Shown here piece by piece: positions 1,584 through 44,994 of a stretch of DNA of 45,228 nucleotides (its first letter is position 1; each line of letters begins with the position of its first letter). The notes beneath the pieces were generated by a model, which did not search any database, had not been told where the DNA came from, and saw only the letters and a program-made list of their open reading frames with translations. The translations under genes and the position numbers were made by a program. The stretch is from a virus: positions 1 to 45,228 of the IMG/VR virus record IMGVR_UViG_3300038379_000089, one strand, 5' to 3'.

Positions 1584-3353
1584 ATGCGGTGTGTGGTGGA
1601 TATAGAAACGGATGGGCTCAACCCTTCCCGTATCTGGTGTACCTCTGTTATCAACGTAGACACAGAGGAGAGCTGGTTCTTCGGGCCGGACGAGCTGGAT
1701 AAATTCGCAGAGTTAGCTAAGGGTATTACACAGTGGATAGGGCACAACTTCCTTACCTTTGACTGGCCGGTGATAGAGAAGTTTACCCCGGTGCGTATCC
1801 CTTTCCCCTCTATTCTTGATACTCTTATTCTTTCCCGTCTTCTCTTTACAGGAACAGTGAATAAACATTCCATGGAGGCGTGGGGTGAACGTCTGGCTAC
1901 TCCTAAGCAGGAGCACGAGGACTGGTCGCAGTTTAGCGAAGAGATGAAGCAGCGGTGTGTATCCGATACGTGGTTAAACCTGAAGATGTACCGGATGTTT
2001 CAGAAGTGTCTAGTCAATTATTCCCCTAAGTGCGTAGAGCTGGAGCATCAGGTACAACACATTCTTAACCGGCAGAAGGCGAACGGGTTCCCGCTCAACG
2101 TAGATAGCGCCTACGCCATTCTCAGGGAGTGCAAGGAAAAAGCGGAGGCCATTGAGAGCGAGATACATCTGTCCTTTCCGCCAGTGCCGGTGTTGGTGGA
2201 TACGTATTTTCCCCGCTATAACAAGGATGGTACGATGTCCAAGGCGTCTGAGGGTAAGCTGTCCCGGTTTCCAGTGCAGAAGAAACTGAAGAACGGGAAG
2301 TACCAGCTCTTCAAGATGCAGGAGTTTAACCTCGGTTCTCCCAAGCAGATAGTGGAGCGCCTGAATGAAACGGGGTGGAAGCCCACAGTGAAGACGGAGA
2401 AGGGCACTCCTAAAATTTGTGAAGAAAACCTCAAGACCATACCTGATACCGCCCCCGCCTCTATTCGCAAGCTGGTTGATTGGTGGTTGCTGCGGAATAG
2501 GTGTACGATAATCGAAGGATGGCTGGATGCTTACAACCCCAAGACAGGGTGCATCCACGGTACCTGCATAGGCATCGGAGCTATCACTCATCGCATGGCG
2601 CACTACGATCCTCAGATGGCAAATATCCCGGCCATTCGTAGCGAATACGGGGAAGCCCTGAGAGCGTGCCTGTACGCGGGGGACGATCCTTCCTATGTAC
2701 AGCTTGGGTGCGATATCGACGGTATACAGCTTTGCATCCTTGCCCACTACCTGAACGACCCCAAGTACACGGAGGCAATCGCCAGCGGGGTAAAGGAAAA
2801 GGGCACCGACATTCACTCCGTCAACCGGGATATCCTGAAAGAGATAGTGCCCCACGTAGACAGGGATGCAGCAAAGAAGTTTATTTATTCTATGCTTCTT
2901 GGTGCCGGTGGATACAAACTGGGTTTGGATATGGGCGTGGGCGCAAAGGAAGGACAGGCGTGCAAGGACAGGATGTTTACCCGCATTCCCGCATTTAAAC
3001 GAGTACAAAGAATGTGCGAAACTGCGGCCAAGCGCGGGTACATGCTAGGAATTGATGGCCGGAGGACTCCTGTTAAATCCGAACACTTTGCGCTATCAGT
3101 GTACCTCCAATGCGGAGAGGCGGTAGTGATGAAGCAGGCGTTAGTGTACATCCACGAGCGGGCAAAGCATCTTGATTGGAAGCAGATGGCGGTGGTGCAC
3201 GATGAAATACAGGCCCGCGTAAAGGCAGAACAGGCGGAGGAGTTAGGGCAGATTATGGTGAGCGCTATTGTGGATGCCGGTAAACTATTCCAGCTTAGAT
3301 GCCCTCTTTCAGGATCGTATAAAGTTGGGAGAAATTGGGCAGATACCCATTGA
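1584..3353 (+). CDS. Family A (Pol I / T7 gp5-like) DNA polymerase with 3'-5' exonuclease motifs
   Basis: 589 aa. Exo I DIETDGL; Exo II HNFLTFDWPV. Pol motif A DIDGIQLCILAH, motif B RDAAKKFIYSMLLGAG, motif C VVHDEIQ. Confidence 0.9.
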   Translation: MRCVVDIETDGLNPSRIWCTSVINVDTEESWFFGPDELDKFAELAKGITQWIGHNFLTFDWPVIEKFTPVRIPFPSILDTLILSRLLFTGTVNKHSMEAWGERLATPKQEHEDWSQFSEEMKQRCVSDTWLNLKMYRMFQKCLVNYSPKCVELEHQVQHILNRQKANGFPLNVDSAYAILRECKEKAEAIESEIHLSFPPVPVLVDTYFPRYNKDGTMSKASEGKLSRFPVQKKLKNGKYQLFKMQEFNLGSPKQIVERLNETGWKPTVKTEKGTPKICEENLKTIPDTAPASIRKLVDWWLLRNRCTIIEGWLDAYNPKTGCIHGTCIGIGAITHRMAHYDPQMANIPAIRSEYGEALRACLYAGDDPSYVQLGCDIDGIQLCILAHYLNDPKYTEAIASGVKEKGTDIHSVNRDILKEIVPHVDRDAAKKFIYSMLLGAGGYKLGLDMGVGAKEGQACKDRMFTRIPAFKRVQRMCETAAKRGYMLGIDGRRTPVKSEHFALSVYLQCGEAVVMKQALVYIHERAKHLDWKQMAVVHDEIQARVKAEQAEELGQIMVSAIVDAGKLFQLRCPLSGSYKVGRNWADTH

Positions 3354-10804: not shown

Positions 10805-13800
10805 TTACTGGCCTTTTTCGTTAAGTGTTTTCTTGTATTCTTCAAAGTCTTTTCGGGAGGCTTCGATATTGTAGCGGATAAGGGGAGACAGCCTATGGTC
10901 TTGTTTCCAGCGGGCCTTGGCCATCGAGTTGTACATGGTCTCCGTAAGACCATCCCGCGCTTTCTGGAACACCCTCCGCTGCACTTCCGGAGATTCCCCC
11001 TCCAATAACGCCGCATTCTTTATTGCCCAGAACTGCTGCCCTTCGACGGTTTCTTCCATCGCGGCCCTTGCATTGTTCTCATTCACCATCTTTGTGAGAG
11101 TCTCCACGTCAGTGTTAAAGGAACCGCTCTCGGCGAATAGAAGGGCAAGATCGTGCTGTTTGCCGGAGGGGAACCCAAGGATAGAGGCAAGAGCCTGAAG
11201 TTTGGGGGCGTACGCTACCGGCTCTCCTCGTCTAGAAATAAGAAGGCCTTTGCGGTAAATAGTTAACGCCTTCTCTACCTCTCGCACTGAACCGATGTTC
11301 CGCGCCATATCCATTACAGCTTCCCACAAAGCGTTTTCGGGCAGTACGTCCGGATGTTTTGAGATAGAGATGTACTGGTAGACGTTCAACAGGGACTTGC
11401 TGAAATCATTCATCATGTTGTACGTGGGCCCGAGGATAATCTGGGGAGGGGATTCTCTTGTCCATGCGTCCCCTAAAGCACGGGTAATGCCTGTACCAAA
11501 ACCGGCCCTAGCGCCCATCGCCGTATCCATTTCTCCATCGCTTGCCCAGTAGATTAGCGCGTCTACCATACCTGTCTGAAGCGCTTTGTACGTAAGTCTG
11601 GAAGTTTCTTTATCAGATGTTTCTTCGTACTTCTCAACAAAGTAATTCATGATGTCTTCGCCCCACGGAGCAGCGGCACTACCCCATAAAGCAAGCTGTC
11701 CTACTGCAAAGCGCCACCGTTCTTCCGGAGTCCAGCGGCTTAATCCGCCCGCGCCTAGAAGATTTTGCGCCGTATGCAGGGCGTACTGCTGGAACTGAAG
11801 GGCGCTGGCAAGAAGACTTCCACCCGTGCCTTTGACTGCCATCGAACGGGAGGCTTCTCCCATGTCCATAGAAAGAGCTCCGGCACGGTCCAGCACATCC
11901 CTGAATATTTCCCTGCTTCCCGGCTTAAAGCCCTTCTTCAACGCCTCCCTATACGCTACGTGCCACGCAGTCAACCTGTTCAGTATTTCCGCCTCGTATA
12001 CAGGGCGTCTTCCGGCTTGACGGGCGCGGGACATATAGCTACCTTCCATATACAAACCTGCATCAGCCACATTAGCGAACCCGGACTTACGCAGATCCTG
12101 CATCATGCCGGTAAATTCTTCTTCACTCAACCCATGCAGCGCTTTCCATTTTATAGCGAGTTGCTTTTCTATCTTGGGATTGGCCATTGCCGTACGTAGC
12201 GTCATTGCACCGGAGAGGGCGCGAATGTCCAGCTTCATAGCAGCGATACCTAATGCTGTGGAGAGCTGGAAGAGGAACTGCCCCGGATTACCGAAACCAA
12301 GGTATACATCGAAGGCCCAGCCGCGCATTGCCGAAAGATACTTATCAGCCGATACCCAATCGTACGCAGAAGAAGCGGAGATACCGGTTTTATCCTCGAC
12401 AAATTCGGCGAGCCTTCTTCGCATTCCCGTGTGCATCTCATCTTCGGCGGTTGTCTTTCCTATTTTATTCTTGAGAACCTGTCTAAGATTTTCCAGCTTT
12501 GCAATATCCGGATCAGTCGCGGCTCTGGTGTACCTTGCTTCGTTGAATATCTGGGCGACGTTACCTCCTGTACGAAGGCTATCAGGGTCAAGAGCATCGA
12601 GGGCCTTAGCCATAGCCACCCACTCTTCCATAGCACTTACGTAGAAGTCGCCCATCGCGTGCATCCGGATGGCGTTTCTGAGCGATCTGTCCTGCGCCTC
12701 AAAGGGATCGAGCACTCTTGCCTCTTTATCCTGTGAACCAAGCAGCCGTGTTCCTCTTTTCCCCGTATATGCTTTATTTGTATGTACCAGCCATGCAGCC
12801 GTGTCGTCTGTGAACGCCTCTTTATTAGAGATATCGAAAAAGTCTGACACACCTTCGGAGTATTCCACTGGAAGCTCTCTATCGTACACCGCCCTAAAGG
12901 GATGCGTTTCACTGAAGGCCCCTTCCAAAACCATCCTGTTCCATTCATCGAGACTATCAATCTCAATCGCCGCCAACGCCTCTTCCATTGCAACACGGTT
13001 TGCATCTGAGCCCTCTGCTTTGAAAGCCCTGACTGCCAGTCTTGCCTCCTCGTGTTCAGCCGCCCATTCACTTGCTTCTTTTACGCTCTCGAATACGGCG
13101 TGTACAAAAGCGGAACCTTTCCACTTCTTCCCGTCTTGGTAAGTCCCGAAGTTTGCCTGTTTGACGAAATACTTTCCTTCGTAGATGCGATGTCCGCCCT
13201 GACGGTAGCCGATAACAATCGGGTTTAATTGGCTAACGGAAACAGAACCGCCCTTGCCCAACACAAGAGTAACAGGATCGTCCCCTACTTTAATGGGGGT
13301 ACGCAGCAGGAAGAGCCGAGAACCTTCGTCCATTCTTTTCTTCAAGGCCTCTGCGGAGATATCCCCCGGCTGCAGATACCTGTTGTTTACCGCATCAAAG
13401 ATCCGGAGGTTATCGGCTTGTGGAATGGAGAGAATTTCTTTTGCGGGGGAAGAATAGTTCAAACCTTCAATAGTTAAATGGGAGTAACCCAAACGGGAAA
13501 GATGTTGGTACTCACGGGTATTGCGTATTGCCCAGTCAAGGTCATTAATATTCTTATAGGTATAATAACCCAGTTTCTCCTCTTTTGTAGGAAGGCGTCC
13601 TGCGATGATCTGGAATTGCGTATCCAACTCTTGGCTGTTAAACCACTTGCCTTCCTGCATTCGGCCATCCGGCCCTGTCCAGACATGCGCGTCTCCTTTC
13701 TGAAGAACTTTTATTACATTCCTGCGCCACTCCTTAATTTTTTTATTACGTATAGGGTCAAGAACAGGTTGCAGCAAATAGGGAGTAAATTGCTCTCGTA

Positions 13801-15472
13801 TTAACTTATTCATACGGGCTTTTTGGGCAACAGCTATTTGCAGGTCTACACCCATGCGCTTAGGCAGCCACCCAAGGATATTTGTAGCTTTGGCTGTCCA
13901 CGTATTTGTTGCCTTTATCTCGGCGGTAGCGGAGGGAATAATATAGCCTTCTTCAGGGAGAACGTGGGTTACATTGATGAACCATTGACCGGAAGGGTCT
14001 TGAATAGTTTTTGCGCCTCCGATACCCCGCTTCTTCGCGGCATTAAGCGCTTGTTTTTCGGTAGCGTACCCGCCCGTGCCTTTTGCGCGTCCGAGAGTTA
14101 CAGTGTAAGTGGGAACACCGGAGACTTTATCGGGAGGATTAAGCCGCACGTCTTCAATATGTGAGCCCTTGTATAGCTCTGTCTCTACTTTTTTACGGGT
14201 AGCTTCGAAAGCGGCAGCGCGTTCTTCGGGAGTATTAATAGTTGTCACCCTGTCCGAGATAACTTCCATCGCAGCTTCCCGCTGTTCTTTTAAAGCGGCT
14301 GCAACCTCTGCGTCTAGCTGGTGCGCGGCTTCAATACCTCTGGCAACACCCCCCGAAAGACCTACAGAGGGATCAGAAGTACGGGCTAAGGTGCTGGTAA
14401 GGGAAGCCTCCGTTGCCGCGTTAACATCGTGCACTACCCCGGATACGCCGGAAGGGGGCGTACCATTTGCGGCCAGCTCTATTGTTTCAGCAAGGCGCTG
14501 TTCTGTTCCTGCGCGGTCTAACCCCTTTGTAAATCTGAACCCGTTTCTAAGGGAAGACGCCCAGTGAGCGATTGCACCCGCATCCGTAGCATCCCAAACT
14601 GAAAGCATGGAGTGCGCCAACTGTTGATTCTCGCCCATTCCACGCAGCATATTCTCAATCGCTATTTTCTGAAGAACGGTGTTGGTTTCTCCAACAATAG
14701 ACCTCCCCGCCTGTTCCGCGAATGCGGGGGCCTTCTGCATAAACTCTTCAAGGGGCATATCCAGAAAGTGGCGACGTTGTGCCTCTAGCGTGGAACCGCT
14801 GAATAGAGAGGGGGATGTGTCTTCTGCAAACTCGGAAGTAAGAAGGTGGAAAGGAACCATGAGGCCCGCGTAATTCAAAGCCTTTGTCAGCACCCCTTGT
14901 GATTTATATTTCTCGTTTACTTTATCAAGAAGGTTTTGCCAGATAGCCTGTTTCTTATGCCATTCGGCCACCTTCGCGTCTAAATCGGGATTAGTATTTT
15001 CCGCCACCTGCACCTGTATGGGATGTTTAAGGGCTTCGTCCTGTATTCCTTCTACTCCTGCGCGTTCAAGGGCGAAGGGATTGTCTCTTTCATTAATTGT
15101 TTGAGCCGCTTCCCACACCCCGTTAGGTGCGAACAGCTCCTGCAATCCTGCTGAATCTCCGGAGAAGTACTGTGCGCGGGCAAGCTCCAACATCTTTTGC
15201 TCTACTTTAGCCTGTGCAGAATCGGAGATACGCTTCCGAACATCTCCTTCCCCTCCTTGAGAAATCTCCGCAGCCATTGCTTCCGCCGCCGCGTTAATCT
15301 GGGCGGTAGTCAGGTTGCCGAACTTTACTTGCGCCATCGCCCCCAACAAAGCCGTTTTCGCTACTGTTTCCGGCCCACCCGTATTGGCTTCGGGAGCGGT
15401 AGGAGGAAGAATGTCAAGAGAATCCGGAGGCAGGATATCTAGCAAAGCGTCCTGTTGAATAGGATCAGTCAT
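10805..15472 (-). CDS. Giant internal virion / ejection protein (1555 aa)
   Basis: Single uninterrupted ORF in the position of T7 gp15/gp16-type core proteins. The transglycosylase domain is a separate gene here. Confidence 0.65.
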   Translation of the reverse strand: MTDPIQQDALLDILPPDSLDILPPTAPEANTGGPETVAKTALLGAMAQVKFGNLTTAQINAAAEAMAAEISQGGEGDVRKRISDSAQAKVEQKMLELARAQYFSGDSAGLQELFAPNGVWEAAQTINERDNPFALERAGVEGIQDEALKHPIQVQVAENTNPDLDAKVAEWHKKQAIWQNLLDKVNEKYKSQGVLTKALNYAGLMVPFHLLTSEFAEDTSPSLFSGSTLEAQRRHFLDMPLEEFMQKAPAFAEQAGRSIVGETNTVLQKIAIENMLRGMGENQQLAHSMLSVWDATDAGAIAHWASSLRNGFRFTKGLDRAGTEQRLAETIELAANGTPPSGVSGVVHDVNAATEASLTSTLARTSDPSVGLSGGVARGIEAAHQLDAEVAAALKEQREAAMEVISDRVTTINTPEERAAAFEATRKKVETELYKGSHIEDVRLNPPDKVSGVPTYTVTLGRAKGTGGYATEKQALNAAKKRGIGGAKTIQDPSGQWFINVTHVLPEEGYIIPSATAEIKATNTWTAKATNILGWLPKRMGVDLQIAVAQKARMNKLIREQFTPYLLQPVLDPIRNKKIKEWRRNVIKVLQKGDAHVWTGPDGRMQEGKWFNSQELDTQFQIIAGRLPTKEEKLGYYTYKNINDLDWAIRNTREYQHLSRLGYSHLTIEGLNYSSPAKEILSIPQADNLRIFDAVNNRYLQPGDISAEALKKRMDEGSRLFLLRTPIKVGDDPVTLVLGKGGSVSVSQLNPIVIGYRQGGHRIYEGKYFVKQANFGTYQDGKKWKGSAFVHAVFESVKEASEWAAEHEEARLAVRAFKAEGSDANRVAMEEALAAIEIDSLDEWNRMVLEGAFSETHPFRAVYDRELPVEYSEGVSDFFDISNKEAFTDDTAAWLVHTNKAYTGKRGTRLLGSQDKEARVLDPFEAQDRSLRNAIRMHAMGDFYVSAMEEWVAMAKALDALDPDSLRTGGNVAQIFNEARYTRAATDPDIAKLENLRQVLKNKIGKTTAEDEMHTGMRRRLAEFVEDKTGISASSAYDWVSADKYLSAMRGWAFDVYLGFGNPGQFLFQLSTALGIAAMKLDIRALSGAMTLRTAMANPKIEKQLAIKWKALHGLSEEEFTGMMQDLRKSGFANVADAGLYMEGSYMSRARQAGRRPVYEAEILNRLTAWHVAYREALKKGFKPGSREIFRDVLDRAGALSMDMGEASRSMAVKGTGGSLLASALQFQQYALHTAQNLLGAGGLSRWTPEERWRFAVGQLALWGSAAAPWGEDIMNYFVEKYEETSDKETSRLTYKALQTGMVDALIYWASDGEMDTAMGARAGFGTGITRALGDAWTRESPPQIILGPTYNMMNDFSKSLLNVYQYISISKHPDVLPENALWEAVMDMARNIGSVREVEKALTIYRKGLLISRRGEPVAYAPKLQALASILGFPSGKQHDLALLFAESGSFNTDVETLTKMVNENNARAAMEETVEGQQFWAIKNAALLEGESPEVQRRVFQKARDGLTETMYNSMAKARWKQDHRLSPLIRYNIEASRKDFEEYKKTLNEKGQ

Positions 15473-39626: not shown

Positions 39627-39773
39627 ATGGATGTGCGCTGCCGAATCTGTGACGTGATAACCAATAACCTAGACATCTGCGATAAATGTTTTGATGAAGC
39701 CCCAAGCGAGGAAGAGCTGGAGTGGGAGGAGGACGATATTGAAGAGGAGGGGGACGATCTCGATGAGCGATGA
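39627..39773 (+). CDS. 48-aa zinc-ribbon-like protein with acidic tail (below the track cutoff)
   Basis: Read by eye: AAGGGAGAAGGG RBS, ATG 39627. MDVRCRICDVITNNLDICDKCFDEAPSEEELEWEEDDIEEEGDDLDER, TGA 39771-39773. Overlaps the primase start by 11 nt. Confidence 0.5.
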   Translation: MDVRCRICDVITNNLDICDKCFDEAPSEEELEWEEDDIEEEGDDLDER

Positions 39774-41439
39774 AATATTTTACGGACATGCCCCCTGTTT
39801 CGAGTGCCCTTCTTCGGACGCCATGGGTGTGTGGCAGGATCACTCTTTCTGCTTTTCGTGCGGTACGCGGTTCAGTTACACAGAAGCAAGGGAACGCCCT
39901 GATAAATTCGTAAGCACCAGTAAAAGAAAAAGGAAAGGAAGATACATGAGCGAAGATGGAATAAACGAGATCATAACAGGGGACGAGCCAACAACCCTCA
40001 CAGACAGGCGTCTCTCCAAGGCCACGCTGGAGCACTACGGGGTGACCCTCAGGTACGACGATAAGGGCAATCCAGTACAGCACTTCTATCCGTATTACGA
40101 TGCGGAAGGTAAGCTGGCAGCCACCAAGGTGCGGGAGACGGTGCCCGAAAAGGATTTCTTCATCACCGGAAACATCAAAGGGACGCAGCTATTCGGCCAG
40201 CACCTGCTCCAGAAAGGGGGGAAGTACATTACCCTGTGCGAAGGGGAGATAGATGCCATGTCCAATTACGAGATGCTTGGATACCCCGGAATAGGCGTCA
40301 AGTCCTCTTCTCAGGCCGTGTCCGACTGTAAGTTGCATTTTGATTTTATTAATTCATTCGAAAACATCATCATCGCTTTTGATAACGACAAGCCCGGGCA
40401 GCAGGCGGCGGATAAGGTGGCGCGGCTGTTCAAGGCGTCGAAGGTCAAGATCGTCAACATGAATCCGTACAAAGACATTAACGAGTTTTTGGTAGACGGA
40501 AAGAAAGCGCTGTGGGAGAAGACGTGGTGGAACGCCGCTGCTTTTCAGATAGACGGCATTGTCGCCGGTAGCGGGCTATGGGCCGTGTTGTCTAAAGAAG
40601 ATACGTTCACTTCTATCCCGTACCCGTATGAAGGCATGAATAAAAAGCTGTATGGCTTCCGCACAAGCGAGATGATAACACTTACGGCAGGCACGGGGGC
40701 CGGGAAGACAACCTTCCTTAAACACCTTGCGCTCTGGATAGCGAAACAAACCCCGCCGGAGGTAAAGATAGGGATGCTTATGCTGGAGGAGACGGTGAGG
40801 GAGACGGGATTGGGCCTTATGTCCGCGGCAGCCGGTATTCCTTTCCATCTTCCGGACGCAAAATATACCGAGGAGCAGCGTAAAAAAGCGTTCAGTGAGG
40901 CACTGGGCAGCGGGCGGTTCTTTTTTCACGATCATTTCGGCAGTACTTCTATAGATAACATCATAGATAAGGTGCACAAGCTGGCCACGCAGTACGACTG
41001 TAAATATATTATTCTCGACCATATATCTATTATTGTATCGGATCAACAAAGCGGGGATGAAAGGAGAGCGCTCGATGAAATTGCTACAAAACTTAAAACT
41101 TTTTGCACTAACCGGGATATCTGCTTATTTATTGTCTGTCACCTTAAACGAGTTGGTGGAAAACCGGCTGAAGAAGGGGGACAGATCTCTCTTTCGGACT
41201 TGCGGGGAACTGCCGGAATTGGGCAACTCTCTAACGTTGTTATTGGTCTGGAAAGAGACATCCAGAATGATGATGCGGAGCTGGCTAACAGGGTTAAAGT
41301 CCGGATTCTCAAGAACAGGTTCGCAGGCAAGGCCGGTATAGCGTGCGAGCTTGAGTTCGATTACGATAATTATTGTTTCCGGGAGGTAGAGCCAATGGAT
41401 GCGCCTGCCGAGCCGTTCAAAGTAGTGGAGTGCAAATAA
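39763..41439 (+). CDS. Bifunctional DNA primase-helicase (T7 gp4-like)
   Basis: Zn finger CFEC...CFSC. TOPRIM motifs LCEGEIDAMS and IIAFDNDKPGQQAA. Walker A LTAGTGAGKTTF, Walker B YIILDHIS, then LFIVCHLKR. ATG 39763 after GAGGAGGGGG; the track ORF starts at TTG 39691. Confidence 0.9.
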   Translation: MSDEIFYGHAPCFECPSSDAMGVWQDHSFCFSCGTRFSYTEARERPDKFVSTSKRKRKGRYMSEDGINEIITGDEPTTLTDRRLSKATLEHYGVTLRYDDKGNPVQHFYPYYDAEGKLAATKVRETVPEKDFFITGNIKGTQLFGQHLLQKGGKYITLCEGEIDAMSNYEMLGYPGIGVKSSSQAVSDCKLHFDFINSFENIIIAFDNDKPGQQAADKVARLFKASKVKIVNMNPYKDINEFLVDGKKALWEKTWWNAAAFQIDGIVAGSGLWAVLSKEDTFTSIPYPYEGMNKKLYGFRTSEMITLTAGTGAGKTTFLKHLALWIAKQTPPEVKIGMLMLEETVRETGLGLMSAAAGIPFHLPDAKYTEEQRKKAFSEALGSGRFFFHDHFGSTSIDNIIDKVHKLATQYDCKYIILDHISIIVSDQQSGDERRALDEIATKLKTFCTNRDICLFIVCHLKRVGGKPAEEGGQISLSDLRGTAGIGQLSNVVIGLERDIQNDDAELANRVKVRILKNRFAGKAGIACELEFDYDNYCFREVEPMDAPAEPFKVVECK

Positions 41440-43580: not shown

Positions 43581-44417
43581 ATGATGACAGCATACTACAA
43601 CGAGTTTAAACCGGAAGCCGCAGCGATGCTCCGCCAGCTTATCAAGGACGGGCTTATCGCACCCGGGGAAGTAGATGAACGGTCAATAACGGAGGTTACA
43701 GCAGATGACATCAAAGGATTTACCCAATGCCATTTCTTCGCCGGTATCGGTGGATGGTCAGTTGCTCTCAGGCAAGCCGGATGGCCCGATGACCGACCTG
43801 TTTGGACAGGCTCTTGCCCGTGCCAGCCGTTTAGCAGCGCCGGAAAACAAAAAGGAAAAGAAGATGAAAGACACCTCTGGCCAATCTGGTTCAACCTCAT
43901 CAGCGAGTGCCGACCTTCAATCGTTTTTGGAGAGCAGGTTAGCAGTGCTATTCCCCACGGATGGCTCGACGGAGTGTACGCTGACATGGAAGCAGAAGGT
44001 TACGCCGTCGGGGCGGCGGTATTGCCAGCTTGCTCCGTCGATGCGCCGCATAAAAGAGACCGATTGTGGTTTATGGCCGACCAGCCGAGCGCGGGATTAC
44101 AAGGACAGCGGGGATTTATCGGGGACCATGGTGCGGAAGGATGGCAAGAGCCGCTTGGACACAATACCGCGGCTGGCTTTTGGCACGACCCCGAATGGAT
44201 CATCTGCGGAGACGGCAAAGCCCGACGTATCCCCACAATTAAACCCGATGTTCACCGGATGGCTGATGGGCTACAGCCACGCTCACCTTACGAGTATGCG
44301 GACAGCTATGCTATCGTATCAATCGAAAAGGTCAAAGGCCACGCGGCATTGCTCCACGGATTAGGTAATGCGATAGTGCCGGAAGTTGCGGCGCGGTTCA
44401 TCAAAGCGTCAATGTAA
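43581..44417 (+). CDS. DNA (cytosine-5)-methyltransferase (278 aa)
   Basis: Motif I FAGIGG (43737-43754). Motif IV SCPCQPFS (PCQ at 43818-43826). ENV-like FGEQV (43926-43940). Motif VIII HKRDRLWF (44049-44072). Motif X GNAIVP (44364-44381). Confidence 0.9.
   Translation: MMTAYYNEFKPEAAAMLRQLIKDGLIAPGEVDERSITEVTADDIKGFTQCHFFAGIGGWSVALRQAGWPDDRPVWTGSCPCQPFSSAGKQKGKEDERHLWPIWFNLISECRPSIVFGEQVSSAIPHGWLDGVYADMEAEGYAVGAAVLPACSVDAPHKRDRLWFMADQPSAGLQGQRGFIGDHGAEGWQEPLGHNTAAGFWHDPEWIICGDGKARRIPTIKPDVHRMADGLQPRSPYEYADSYAIVSIEKVKGHAALLHGLGNAIVPEVAARFIKASM
43705..44364 (+). CDS. +1-frame ORF embedded in the methyltransferase gene (219 aa; WPT / LNP..WLMG protein)
   Basis: Open for 219 codons. ATG 43705 lies 9 nt after GGAGG (43691-43695). 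Contains MTDLFG (Met at 43789), LTWKQKVTPSGR (43981-44016), LWPTSRARDYKDSG (WPT at 44074-44082) and LNPMFTGWLMGY (44239-44274). See the first finding. Confidence 0.5.
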   Translation: MTSKDLPNAISSPVSVDGQLLSGKPDGPMTDLFGQALARASRLAAPENKKEKKMKDTSGQSGSTSSASADLQSFLESRLAVLFPTDGSTECTLTWKQKVTPSGRRYCQLAPSMRRIKETDCGLWPTSRARDYKDSGDLSGTMVRKDGKSRLDTIPRLAFGTTPNGSSAETAKPDVSPQLNPMFTGWLMGYSHAHLTSMRTAMLSYQSKRSKATRHCSTD

Positions 44418-44745: not shown

Positions 44746-44994
44746 GTGATGCCGAAGGTTTATAATAAATATAAAGGCTACCCAGAGGATGCTATTTATG
44801 TTGGCAGAGGTTCGCCTTGGGGCAATCCCTTTGTAATAGGTAAAGACGGAAACAGAGAAGATGTGTGTAATAAATTTGAGAGTATCACGCTTCCACTTTT
44901 GGATGTTTCCGCTTTGCGTGGAAAAGACCTTGTTTGCTTTTGTGCCCCGTTGCGCTGCCATGCCGATGCTCTTTTAAGAAAGGCTAACAAATGA
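44746..44994 (+). CDS. DUF4326-like protein (82 aa)
   Basis: AAGGAGGGGG RBS. YVGRGSPWGNPF ... LVCFCAPLRCHADAL matches, from memory, the DUF4326 signature. Confidence 0.7.
   Translation: MMPKVYNKYKGYPEDAIYVGRGSPWGNPFVIGKDGNREDVCNKFESITLPLLDVSALRGKDLVCFCAPLRCHADALLRKANK

Follow-up and report, generated by a model that had tools for sequence, protein, structure and literature searches.

The window analysed here is the whole 45,228-nt stretch of the IMG/VR virus record IMGVR_UViG_3300038379_000089, and our subject is a DNA cytosine-5 (C5) methyltransferase gene close to its 3' end, where two long open reading frames (ORFs) share one strand. ORF A is the only one of the two called in the source annotation of the contig (P0121); ORF B, in the +1 frame, covers 79% of it. 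An earlier examination of the letters alone (the sequence-only reading) had located both ORFs, the order of the methyltransferase motifs in A and the spacing between a GGAGG and the first ATG of B, and all of these were found in the sequence where it had put them. The same was true of the frame-B peptides MTDLFG, GSTECTLTWKQKVTPSGRR, CGLWPTSRARDYKDSG, QLNPMFTGWLMGYSHAHL and SKRSK, and of ATGGCCGAC (44073-44081), which is M-A-D in frame A and W-P-T in frame B. The principal elements are:

43581-44417, plus strand: ORF A, 278 aa, predicted alpha subunit of a C5-cytosine methyltransferase
43705-44364, plus strand: ORF B, 219 aa, +1 frame, wholly within A; putative beta subunit (target-recognition modules and motif IX)
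43691-43695, plus strand: GGAGG, Shine-Dalgarno (SD) sequence of B, 9 nt before the ATG at 43705 and made of frame-A codons
43737-43754, plus strand: motif I, FAGIGG, frame A
43818-43826, plus strand: motif IV, PCQ, frame A
43929-43940, plus strand: motif VI, GEQV (ENV-like), frame A
44055-44072, plus strand: motif VIII, RDRLWF, frame A
44364-44381, plus strand: motif X, GNAIVP, frame A

The stop codon of B (TAG, 44362-44364) stands at the beginning of GNAIVP. In bacteria and their viruses, genes of clear function seldom overlap at length on one strand, and standard gene callers forbid such overlaps.

Persistence of the second frame and alternation of selection

Searches by tblastn with either frame A or frame B led to identical places in phage genomes. 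No near-identical DNA was found in the phage collection, and no close relative is deposited there. The sample comprised 80 IMG/VR loci, 80 bacterial-genome loci (Alpha-, Beta- and Gammaproteobacteria, Acidobacteriota, Nitrospira, Dehalococcoidia, Verrucomicrobiota, Planctomycetes, Bdellovibrionota, Desulfobacterota and Bacteroidota) and several deposited phages, in total 166 phage or prophage loci from at least 8 bacterial phyla, with A proteins 43-72% identical to that of the window and genomes of 48-68% G+C. The sequence-only reading had left it to homologous loci to tell whether the +1 frame is always open, and it is so in all 166 sampled: the open stretch measures 205-449 codons, nearly the whole gene, in 86 of 86 viral and 80 of 80 bacterial-genome loci. 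The +2 frame has a mean of ~16 stops and a longest open run of ~60-75 codons, and frame A itself is interrupted in two loci (L005 and L059). When the codons of A were shuffled synonymously, the observed +1 open length was reached in ~1.4% of trials per locus (1% for the window), the number of +1 stops expected per gene being modest (~7). Over the segment encoding motifs I-VIII, B is free of stops in 128 of 129 loci (probability of no stop ~0.26 per locus under A-synonymous shuffling); over the modules and motif IX, A is free of stops in 129 of 129 (~0.10 per locus under B-synonymous shuffling). At this divergence of A, inheritance alone does not keep the +1 frame open.

A few loci have altered frames. 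L005 (3891-4680 of a piece of bacterial chromosome GCA_031501865.1) adjoins a rve-family transposase. Its frame A is disrupted, with the N-terminus missing and a stop inside; frame B is open for 208 codons, and B is the gene called there. At L100 (361-1586) the C-terminus of A reads the tail of B (…VPVEWDCCGDMAMRLCRKSRR). In Mycobacterium phage OfUltron (L087, 1363-2245) two genes annotated as 'DNA methylase' divide A between them, the break falling after motif VI, and a B-type ORF lies in the third frame. Indel errors, decay or a further rearrangement of the architecture could each explain the frame changes in L100 and OfUltron.

The start of B recurs as well. In the window its ATG lies ~120 nt into A, and in most loci the first B-frame ATG is found 76-136 nt into A. 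An SD-like 4-mer or longer precedes this ATG in 61% of cases, versus 22% for other out-of-frame ATGs (79 loci). A conserved arginine of A, Arg34, is encoded by AGG in 37% of loci versus 10.5% for other Arg codons, and this AGG often builds the SD of B. Since no promoter-like site was found inside the gene on the plus strand, B is probably translated from the mRNA of A.

Which frame is under selection was examined along the gene, for which the following segments are distinguished:

43737-44072, plus strand: frame-A-dominated segment, FAGIGG to RDRLWF (substitution rates and column conservation)
43981-44019, plus strand: B-frame beta-hairpin LTWKQKVTPSGRR, with B-specific conservation overlying the motif VII-VIII region of A
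44074-44097, plus strand: B-frame WPTSRARD, first WPTP..D module (column conservation)
44082-44180, plus strand: variable region; in A an unconserved disordered linker, in B a variable module region
44181-44225, plus strand: frame-A patch W..EWIICGDGKAR (family consensus W..C.DGK.R), a small hairpin
44236-44289, plus strand: B-frame QLNPMFTGWLMGYSHAHL, motif IX-like helix (conservation, substitution rates, structure model and profile)
44280-44337, plus strand: 19-codon insertion in A, present in the window's subfamily only, which encodes the C-terminal tail of B (…TSMRTAMLSYQSKRSK)
44340-44417, plus strand: frame-A motif X region (HAALLHGLGNAIVPEVAARFIKASM), with conservation and a frame-A wobble pattern

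Substitutions per site were counted at A codon positions 1, 2 and 3 in 138 pairs of genes whose nucleotide identity was 72-98.5%. The rates were 0.146, 0.104 and 0.329 in motifs I-VIII; 0.256, 0.193 and 0.205 in the module region; 0.259, 0.092 and 0.108 in the motif IX block; and 0.162, 0.160 and 0.307 in the motif X region. The wobble position of B is codon position 1 of A, which is where the rate peaks in the module region. The peak thus moves from position 3 to position 1 and back to position 3 along the gene, which means that purifying selection acts first on A, then on B and then on A again. In the motif IX block the synonymous sites of A are constrained like second positions (0.108, versus 0.329 in the N-terminal half), so that the excess synonymous conservation to be expected of a dual-coding gene is present in the key blocks of B.

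Column conservation agrees in position with these rates. Frame A is conserved strongly from the N-terminus to R.RLWF (~44076), and again at W..C.DGK.R and at R.GRL.GYGNAIVPQVA (from 44340); in the patch at 44181-44225 the wobble is that of frame A and the conserved residues are C 0.82, D 0.96, G 0.94, K 0.91 and R 0.96. Frame B is the better conserved of the two at WPTP..D and at QLNP....WLMG.P..W. In the WPTP module the values for B are W 0.96, P 0.80, T 0.89 and P 0.89, whereas A on the same bases has D 0.38 and Q/A 0.29. In the motif IX block they are L.97, N.90, P.96, W.97, L.97, M.94 and G.95, with A residues at 0.35-0.9 on those bases; the methionine of WLMG, 94% conserved, overlies an A residue at 0.39. 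Within the hairpin at 43981-44019, B has W 0.96 and P 1.00 and the least conserved A codon position is position 1; the conserved W and P of B thus fix synonymous choices in A. Pairwise identity of A in the variable region is mostly at or below ~0.15.

The conserved look of B that the sequence-only reading had remarked on has two origins. Several blocks of its N-terminal half and C-terminal tail are by-products of A: LESRL follows mechanically from FGEQV, PASxS from PCQPFS, DLFG from RPVWTG and ATATPSSRK from GYGNAIVPQ, and these blocks are therefore not independent evidence for B. For LTWK..TP, WPTP..D and LNP..WLMG.P..W the remark holds, and it is there that the B-specific signal is located. 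Relatives have 0-5 matches to the pattern W[PAL]T[PAS], and insertions in L004 and L006 add WxTP..D modules in B where A reads low-complexity sequence. The genes of these two loci also contain antisense ORFs of 58-126 codons, and an antisense ORF of 130 codons (43595-43987, minus strand) lies inside the methyltransferase gene of the window.

The 19-codon insertion sits between a PLADG-like block and motif X and is absent from ~86% of A homologues, ~14% having residues in its columns. In most relatives the tail of B overlaps motif X itself; in the window it is encoded inside the insertion. The idea that the insertion arose by duplication of the motif X region and then degenerated was considered and rejected, since the nucleotide alignment was no better than that of shuffles.

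A non-functional B, held open by the conservation of A and a G+C-rich composition, or owed to an assembly error or to the decay of a frameshifted pseudogene, would account for the many blocks that derive from A motifs, for the low number of expected stops and for a source annotation that has A only. It would not account for a frame that stays open in divergent loci over the whole range of G+C, for conservation of B above that of A at WPTP and LNP..WLMG.P..W with the wobble switched to frame B, for insertions that read as recognisable modules in B but as low-complexity sequence in A, or for the stand-alone homologues described below. We regard this explanation as highly improbable; its simplest form, a chance open frame, had been one of the options of the sequence-only reading and is excluded by the comparative data. 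Both ORFs are maintained by selection, and the selected frame alternates along the gene. The locus is a genuine, selected dual-coding gene, as the leading option of the sequence-only reading had it, on the combined strength of the open frame, the constrained synonymous sites of A, the SD and ATG, the stand-alone homologues and motif IX.

Predicted roles of the two products

ORF A matched phrog_363 end to end (E = 9e-74). Its match to PF00145 scored 66.3 bits (cut-off 22) and covered residues 75-166 only, i.e. motifs IV-VIII. The M.HhaI sequence aligned at residues 71-169, and the Pfam and TIGR00675 matches ended at motif VIII. In an AlphaFold2 (AF2) model of A, the predicted local distance difference test score (pLDDT) exceeded 90 at residues 1-167 and 257-278 and was below 50 for most of 168-256. 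The model contains a C-terminal helix at 267-277 (pLDDT 95; motif X) and strands at 204-208 and 214-218 (pLDDT ~62-66), the hairpin of C.DGK.R, which may contribute to DNA contact. Foldseek searches with this model returned M.HhaI (E = 1.5e-9) and M.HaeIII (E = 2.8e-8), with ~170-200 of ~327 residues aligned, corresponding to the large catalytic domain. No motif IX-like sequence was found in frame A and no folded small domain in its AF2 model. As modelled, A is therefore a large catalytic domain (motifs I-VIII) with the motif X helix: it has the motifs and the Rossmann-like large-domain fold of the C5-cytosine DNA methyltransferases and lacks a motif IX and a small domain in the same chain. 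A small target-recognition domain (TRD) is needed by every C5 methyltransferase.

The N-terminus of the A family (residues 1-83; 43581-43830) is unusual. FFAGIGG is preceded by a conserved strand-helix, AYYNE.DP.AA.WL..LI, and the distance from FAGIGG to PCQ is only ~21 residues, an interval in which canonical C5 enzymes have motifs II-III. Positions 25-159 of TIGR00675 align to residues 5-166 of A, which suggests a rearranged or permuted region for binding S-adenosylmethionine (SAM); the AF2 model is confident there.

ORF B matched phrog_1008 ('DNA methyltransferase') with E = 2.8e-25. Among 5.8 billion predicted proteins none has exactly this sequence, the best match being 71% identical, and a Pfam domain was found in none of the best 120 of its 441 predicted-protein homologues. 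The phrog_1008 match was considered as evidence of an independent family and discarded in that role because part of it (profile positions 35-170) covers the region of A by-products; the claim of homology is therefore based on the module and motif IX regions. Comparison by hhalign of the B family with the family of stand-alone beta proteins typified by Streptomyces phage Samora gave a probability of 97.4% (E = 1.2e-11) over the hairpin and modules, the WPTP modules of B being aligned to the LLPTP modules of beta subunits. A short hidden Markov model of the C-terminal block of B produced 112 matches at E <= 10 among 123 beta-type and 120 A-type proteins; at E < 1e-3 it matched 35 beta proteins and none of the A-type decoys. 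In the alignments inspected (Samora ORF2, RedFox gp43 and P0244) the match lay just before motif X. As judged from the sequence motif, QLNPMFTGWLMGY of B aligns to the motif that directly precedes motif X in stand-alone beta subunits. The motif X (GN.VV) that follows motif IX in the beta family is not found in B, and the tail of B in its relatives is the +1 reading of A's own motif X. In the AF2 model of B the locally confident parts are a helix at 66-82, the hairpin at 92-112 (LTWK..TPSGR; pLDDT ~84-88) and helices at 181-209 (pLDDT 87-92), which span LNP..WLMG.

By these alignments B is homologous to stand-alone beta subunits. The resemblance of LNP.F..WLMG to the motif IX that A lacks, which the sequence-only reading had pointed out, is borne out by the beta-subunit alignments and is key to the proposed function. 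The same reading had assigned B to a widespread phage and prophage family, and this family is phrog_1008, which consists largely of embedded or overlapping ORFs together with split-gene relatives. The homologues of B are thus not confined to alternative-frame translations, stand-alone beta-subunit genes of split methyltransferases being among them.

In Samora and in Gordonia phage GordTnk2 the catalytic ORF ends directly after motif VIII. The overlapping +1 ORF of Samora has LLPTP..D modules, then KLSPEFAEWLMGLDPGWVT, then RIGNGVVPHQA, and GordTnk2 has equivalent blocks; this order places B-type modules and the motif in frame with a classical motif X. Arthrobacter phage RedFox has two adjacent, non-overlapping genes, gp42 (motifs I-VIII) and gp43 (LLPTP modules, RLSARFTEWMMGQPAGW and CGNGVVTQQA), so that the beta part is a polypeptide of its own in this phage. 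Proteins of this beta type occur widely in actinophages and in the genomes of Streptomyces, where their NCBI name is DNA (cytosine-5-)-methyltransferase, and Samora ORF2 matches phrog_1008, which is this beta family, over its full length (E = 8e-43). No single-chain relative, with PF00145 fused in frame to beta modules, was found among the best 120 homologues of the Samora-type beta protein, all of them short and stand-alone. The profile of phrog_116, in which beta-like sequence follows alpha-like sequence contiguously, is the sole hint and suggests that single-chain versions exist.

Embedded relatives were found as well. Mycobacterium phage Royals2015 has a full-length A with an embedded B in a methyltransferase of canonical N-terminus. 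In Escherichia phages K1G, K1H and K1ind1 (GU196277-9) both ORFs are deposited as coding sequences, ORF29 as 'C-specific methylase' and ORF28 as 'Mte8-like protein' (families phrog_363 and phrog_1008). Their embedded two-ORF architecture is like that of the window (A ~50% and B ~38% identical), and it is known from annotation, in which the embedded ORF carries no assigned function; no source of the label 'Mte8' was traced in the literature. Most records other than these three call only A. The BASEL phages Bas70-80 (PQ850596-PQ850632) and the three K1 phages are cultivable E. coli phages with an A/B locus (A ~45-50%, B ~37-45% identical), and the embedded ORF is annotated in only some of their records.

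The relatives bear on whether B might serve some purpose apart from methylation, such as regulation or anti-defence, with A self-sufficient by means of a minimal recognition loop. B is under purifying selection yet has no structure or domain match to catalysis, and A keeps the conserved C.DGK.R hairpin that could contact DNA; so far the idea is served. Against it, the best-conserved block of B falls, in beta subunits that bear motif X, on the position of motif IX, A is without motif IX, and none of the loci examined has a B apart from an alpha-type gene; the beta subunit of the heterodimeric enzyme M.EcoHK31I is also described as required for methylation (PMC2836561; PMC3404938). An independent role of B is, in our view, unlikely.

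They bear equally on a single polypeptide made by programmed frameshifting, from A to B (+1) after motif VIII and from B to A (-1) before motif X, which the sequence-only reading had listed as its second option. Such a product would restore the canonical order of motifs I-VIII, TRD, IX and X, and Samora-type relatives do have the TRD, IX and X in one frame, +1 to motifs I-VIII. However, both frames are open beyond what two shifts would need, B through motifs I-VIII and A through the modules and motif IX, and B possesses a conserved SD and ATG of its own close to the 5' end. No conserved slippery site was found: a canonical -1 heptamer (X_XXY_YYZ in the phase of B) occurs between motif IX and the stop of B in 7 of 72 loci. 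The A-selected patch at 44181-44225 lies between two B-selected blocks, so that four shifts would be called for to read every selected block. The parts are separate genes in RedFox, and M.EcoHK31I is reported to consist experimentally of two polypeptides (PMC2836561). Frameshift fusion is accordingly disfavoured, and we think it quite improbable.

A probable two-subunit methyltransferase and its known counterparts

The locus probably encodes an alpha/beta C5-methyltransferase whose beta subunit is embedded in the alpha gene, an architecture of the M.EcoHK31I type. Two overlapping frames of one mRNA would then yield one two-subunit enzyme. Frame A would give alpha, with the SAM-binding catalytic large domain (motifs I-VIII); alpha would next read ~90 codons of little sequence importance in its own frame and end with the helix of motif X, by which the large domain is completed. 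Frame B would give beta from its own SD and ATG. The N-terminal part of beta, largely dictated by the motifs of A, would probably serve for docking, and its WPTP-type modules and motif IX-like helix would be the counterpart of the small TRD. By analogy with M.EcoHK31I, alpha and beta would assemble in trans into the active enzyme, which would methylate the phage genome and so evade host restriction. The translation of B, its assembly with A and its need for activity are here proposed from sequence comparisons.

Several points weigh against this reading. The locus is known here from sequence and predicted models, and its 166 relatives share ancestry, so that combined probabilities overstate independence and the per-locus shuffling values given above are not to be multiplied. 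Neither B, nor the B-family profile, nor the beta-subunit profile had a match in Pfam, NCBIfam or the PDB. The AF2 model of B is weak (pLDDT 64; predicted template modelling score 0.28), with its first 60 residues disordered, and Foldseek found no meaningful match for it. The putative motif IX of B is assigned by motif likeness and beta-subunit homology rather than from a solved structure, and B of the window reads GYSHAHL where the family consensus is GYP.EW, a variant common to its closest relatives. The A-B-A mosaic of selection, taken by itself, fits a frameshift fusion equally well. Finally, the likeness to M.EcoHK31I is one of architecture as described in papers.

For the family at large the argument can be taken further with more hesitation. 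The alpha family comprises at least 8000 protein clusters at 90% identity, with hosts in at least 8 bacterial phyla. It is conceivable, at somewhat less than even chances, that all of its members are obligate alpha/beta heterodimers with beta hidden in the +1 frame of alpha; that the alpha linker only carries the beta coding sequence and reaches to motif X; that gain and loss of WPTP modules in beta, silent 'junk' in alpha, changes target specificity; and that the graded series from adjacent genes (RedFox) through partial overlap (Blue7, Samora and GordTnk2) to full embedding (the window, K1G and Royals2015) documents evolution from a split enzyme. The architecture itself is already known from M.EcoHK31I, if obscure; what is notable is its breadth, the +1 ORF staying open along almost all of the gene in each sampled locus, and its systematic omission from annotation.

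If the two-subunit reading is true, phage genes annotated as 'DNA cytosine methyltransferases' give, in thousands of cases, only half of the enzyme. Neither heterologous expression nor a prediction of specificity would then succeed with the annotated ORF by itself, and the 'hypothetical' or 'DNA methylase' proteins of phrog_1008 would be explained. The locus would also be a natural example of two proteins that share a sequence and are constrained in one frame and the other by turns, useful for the detection of overlaps and for the design of synthetic ones. Cultivable relatives (K1G, K1H and BASEL Bas70-80) make the idea directly testable.

The contig is a ~45-kb tailed-phage genome with a T7-like DNA polymerase (1584-3353), a primase/helicase (39691-41439) and, on the minus strand, a terminase and portal. 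The methyltransferase is located in the replication/early module, which fits an orphan protective methylase. Just downstream of it, an ORF of 82 aa (44746-44994) matches phrog_464 (unknown function) with E = 4e-32, the match covering only the C-terminal part of the 322-position profile. In the structural module, an ORF of 1555 aa (10805-15472, minus strand) has no PHROG match at E <= 0.001.

Among single-chain enzymes, M.HhaI and M.HaeIII have in common with A the catalytic large-domain fold and motifs IV, VI, VIII and X; their small domain (TRD and motif IX) is in the same chain, whereas it is absent from A. The split actinophage pairs (RedFox gp42/gp43, Samora gp34/gp35, GordTnk2 gp28/gp29 and Blue7 gp92/gp91), which resemble M.AquI in having motifs I-VIII in alpha and the TRD, IX and X in beta, are like the window in the break after motif VIII, in the xxPTP..D modules and in the motif L.P....W(L/M)MG.P.GW. 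In Samora and GordTnk2, the overlapping pairs checked, beta is +1 relative to alpha, as it is in the window. They differ in that motif X belongs to their beta, their alpha ends directly after motif VIII, and the two genes either adjoin or share 30-350 nt; in the window alpha continues to its own motif X and beta is fully embedded.

The closest counterpart in architecture is M.EcoHK31I, which belongs to a restriction-modification system; its two polypeptides were reportedly described by Lee, Kam and Shaw in 1995. PMC3404938 names M.AquI and M.EcoHK31I as two C5 methyltransferases known to be heterodimers and gives M.AquI an alpha subunit with motifs I-VIII and a beta subunit with motifs IX-X. 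For M.EcoHK31I, from E. coli HK31, PMC2836561 and PMC3404938 state that beta is encoded entirely within the alpha gene in another frame, that alpha has motifs I-VIII as well as X and the TRD, that beta has motif IX, and that both are required. According to PMC2836561, silent removal of the beta start codons abolishes activity, and N-terminal residues of beta contribute to its association with alpha. What the window shares with this enzyme is a beta ORF nested in the alpha gene in a different frame, here maintained open in 166 of 166 loci. M.EcoHK31I has the specificity YGGCCR, whereas the methyltransferase of the window is an orphan, encoded in the replication module of a phage; and the TRD of M.EcoHK31I is said to be in alpha, whereas in the window the variable WPTP-type modules, the putative counterpart, are in beta.

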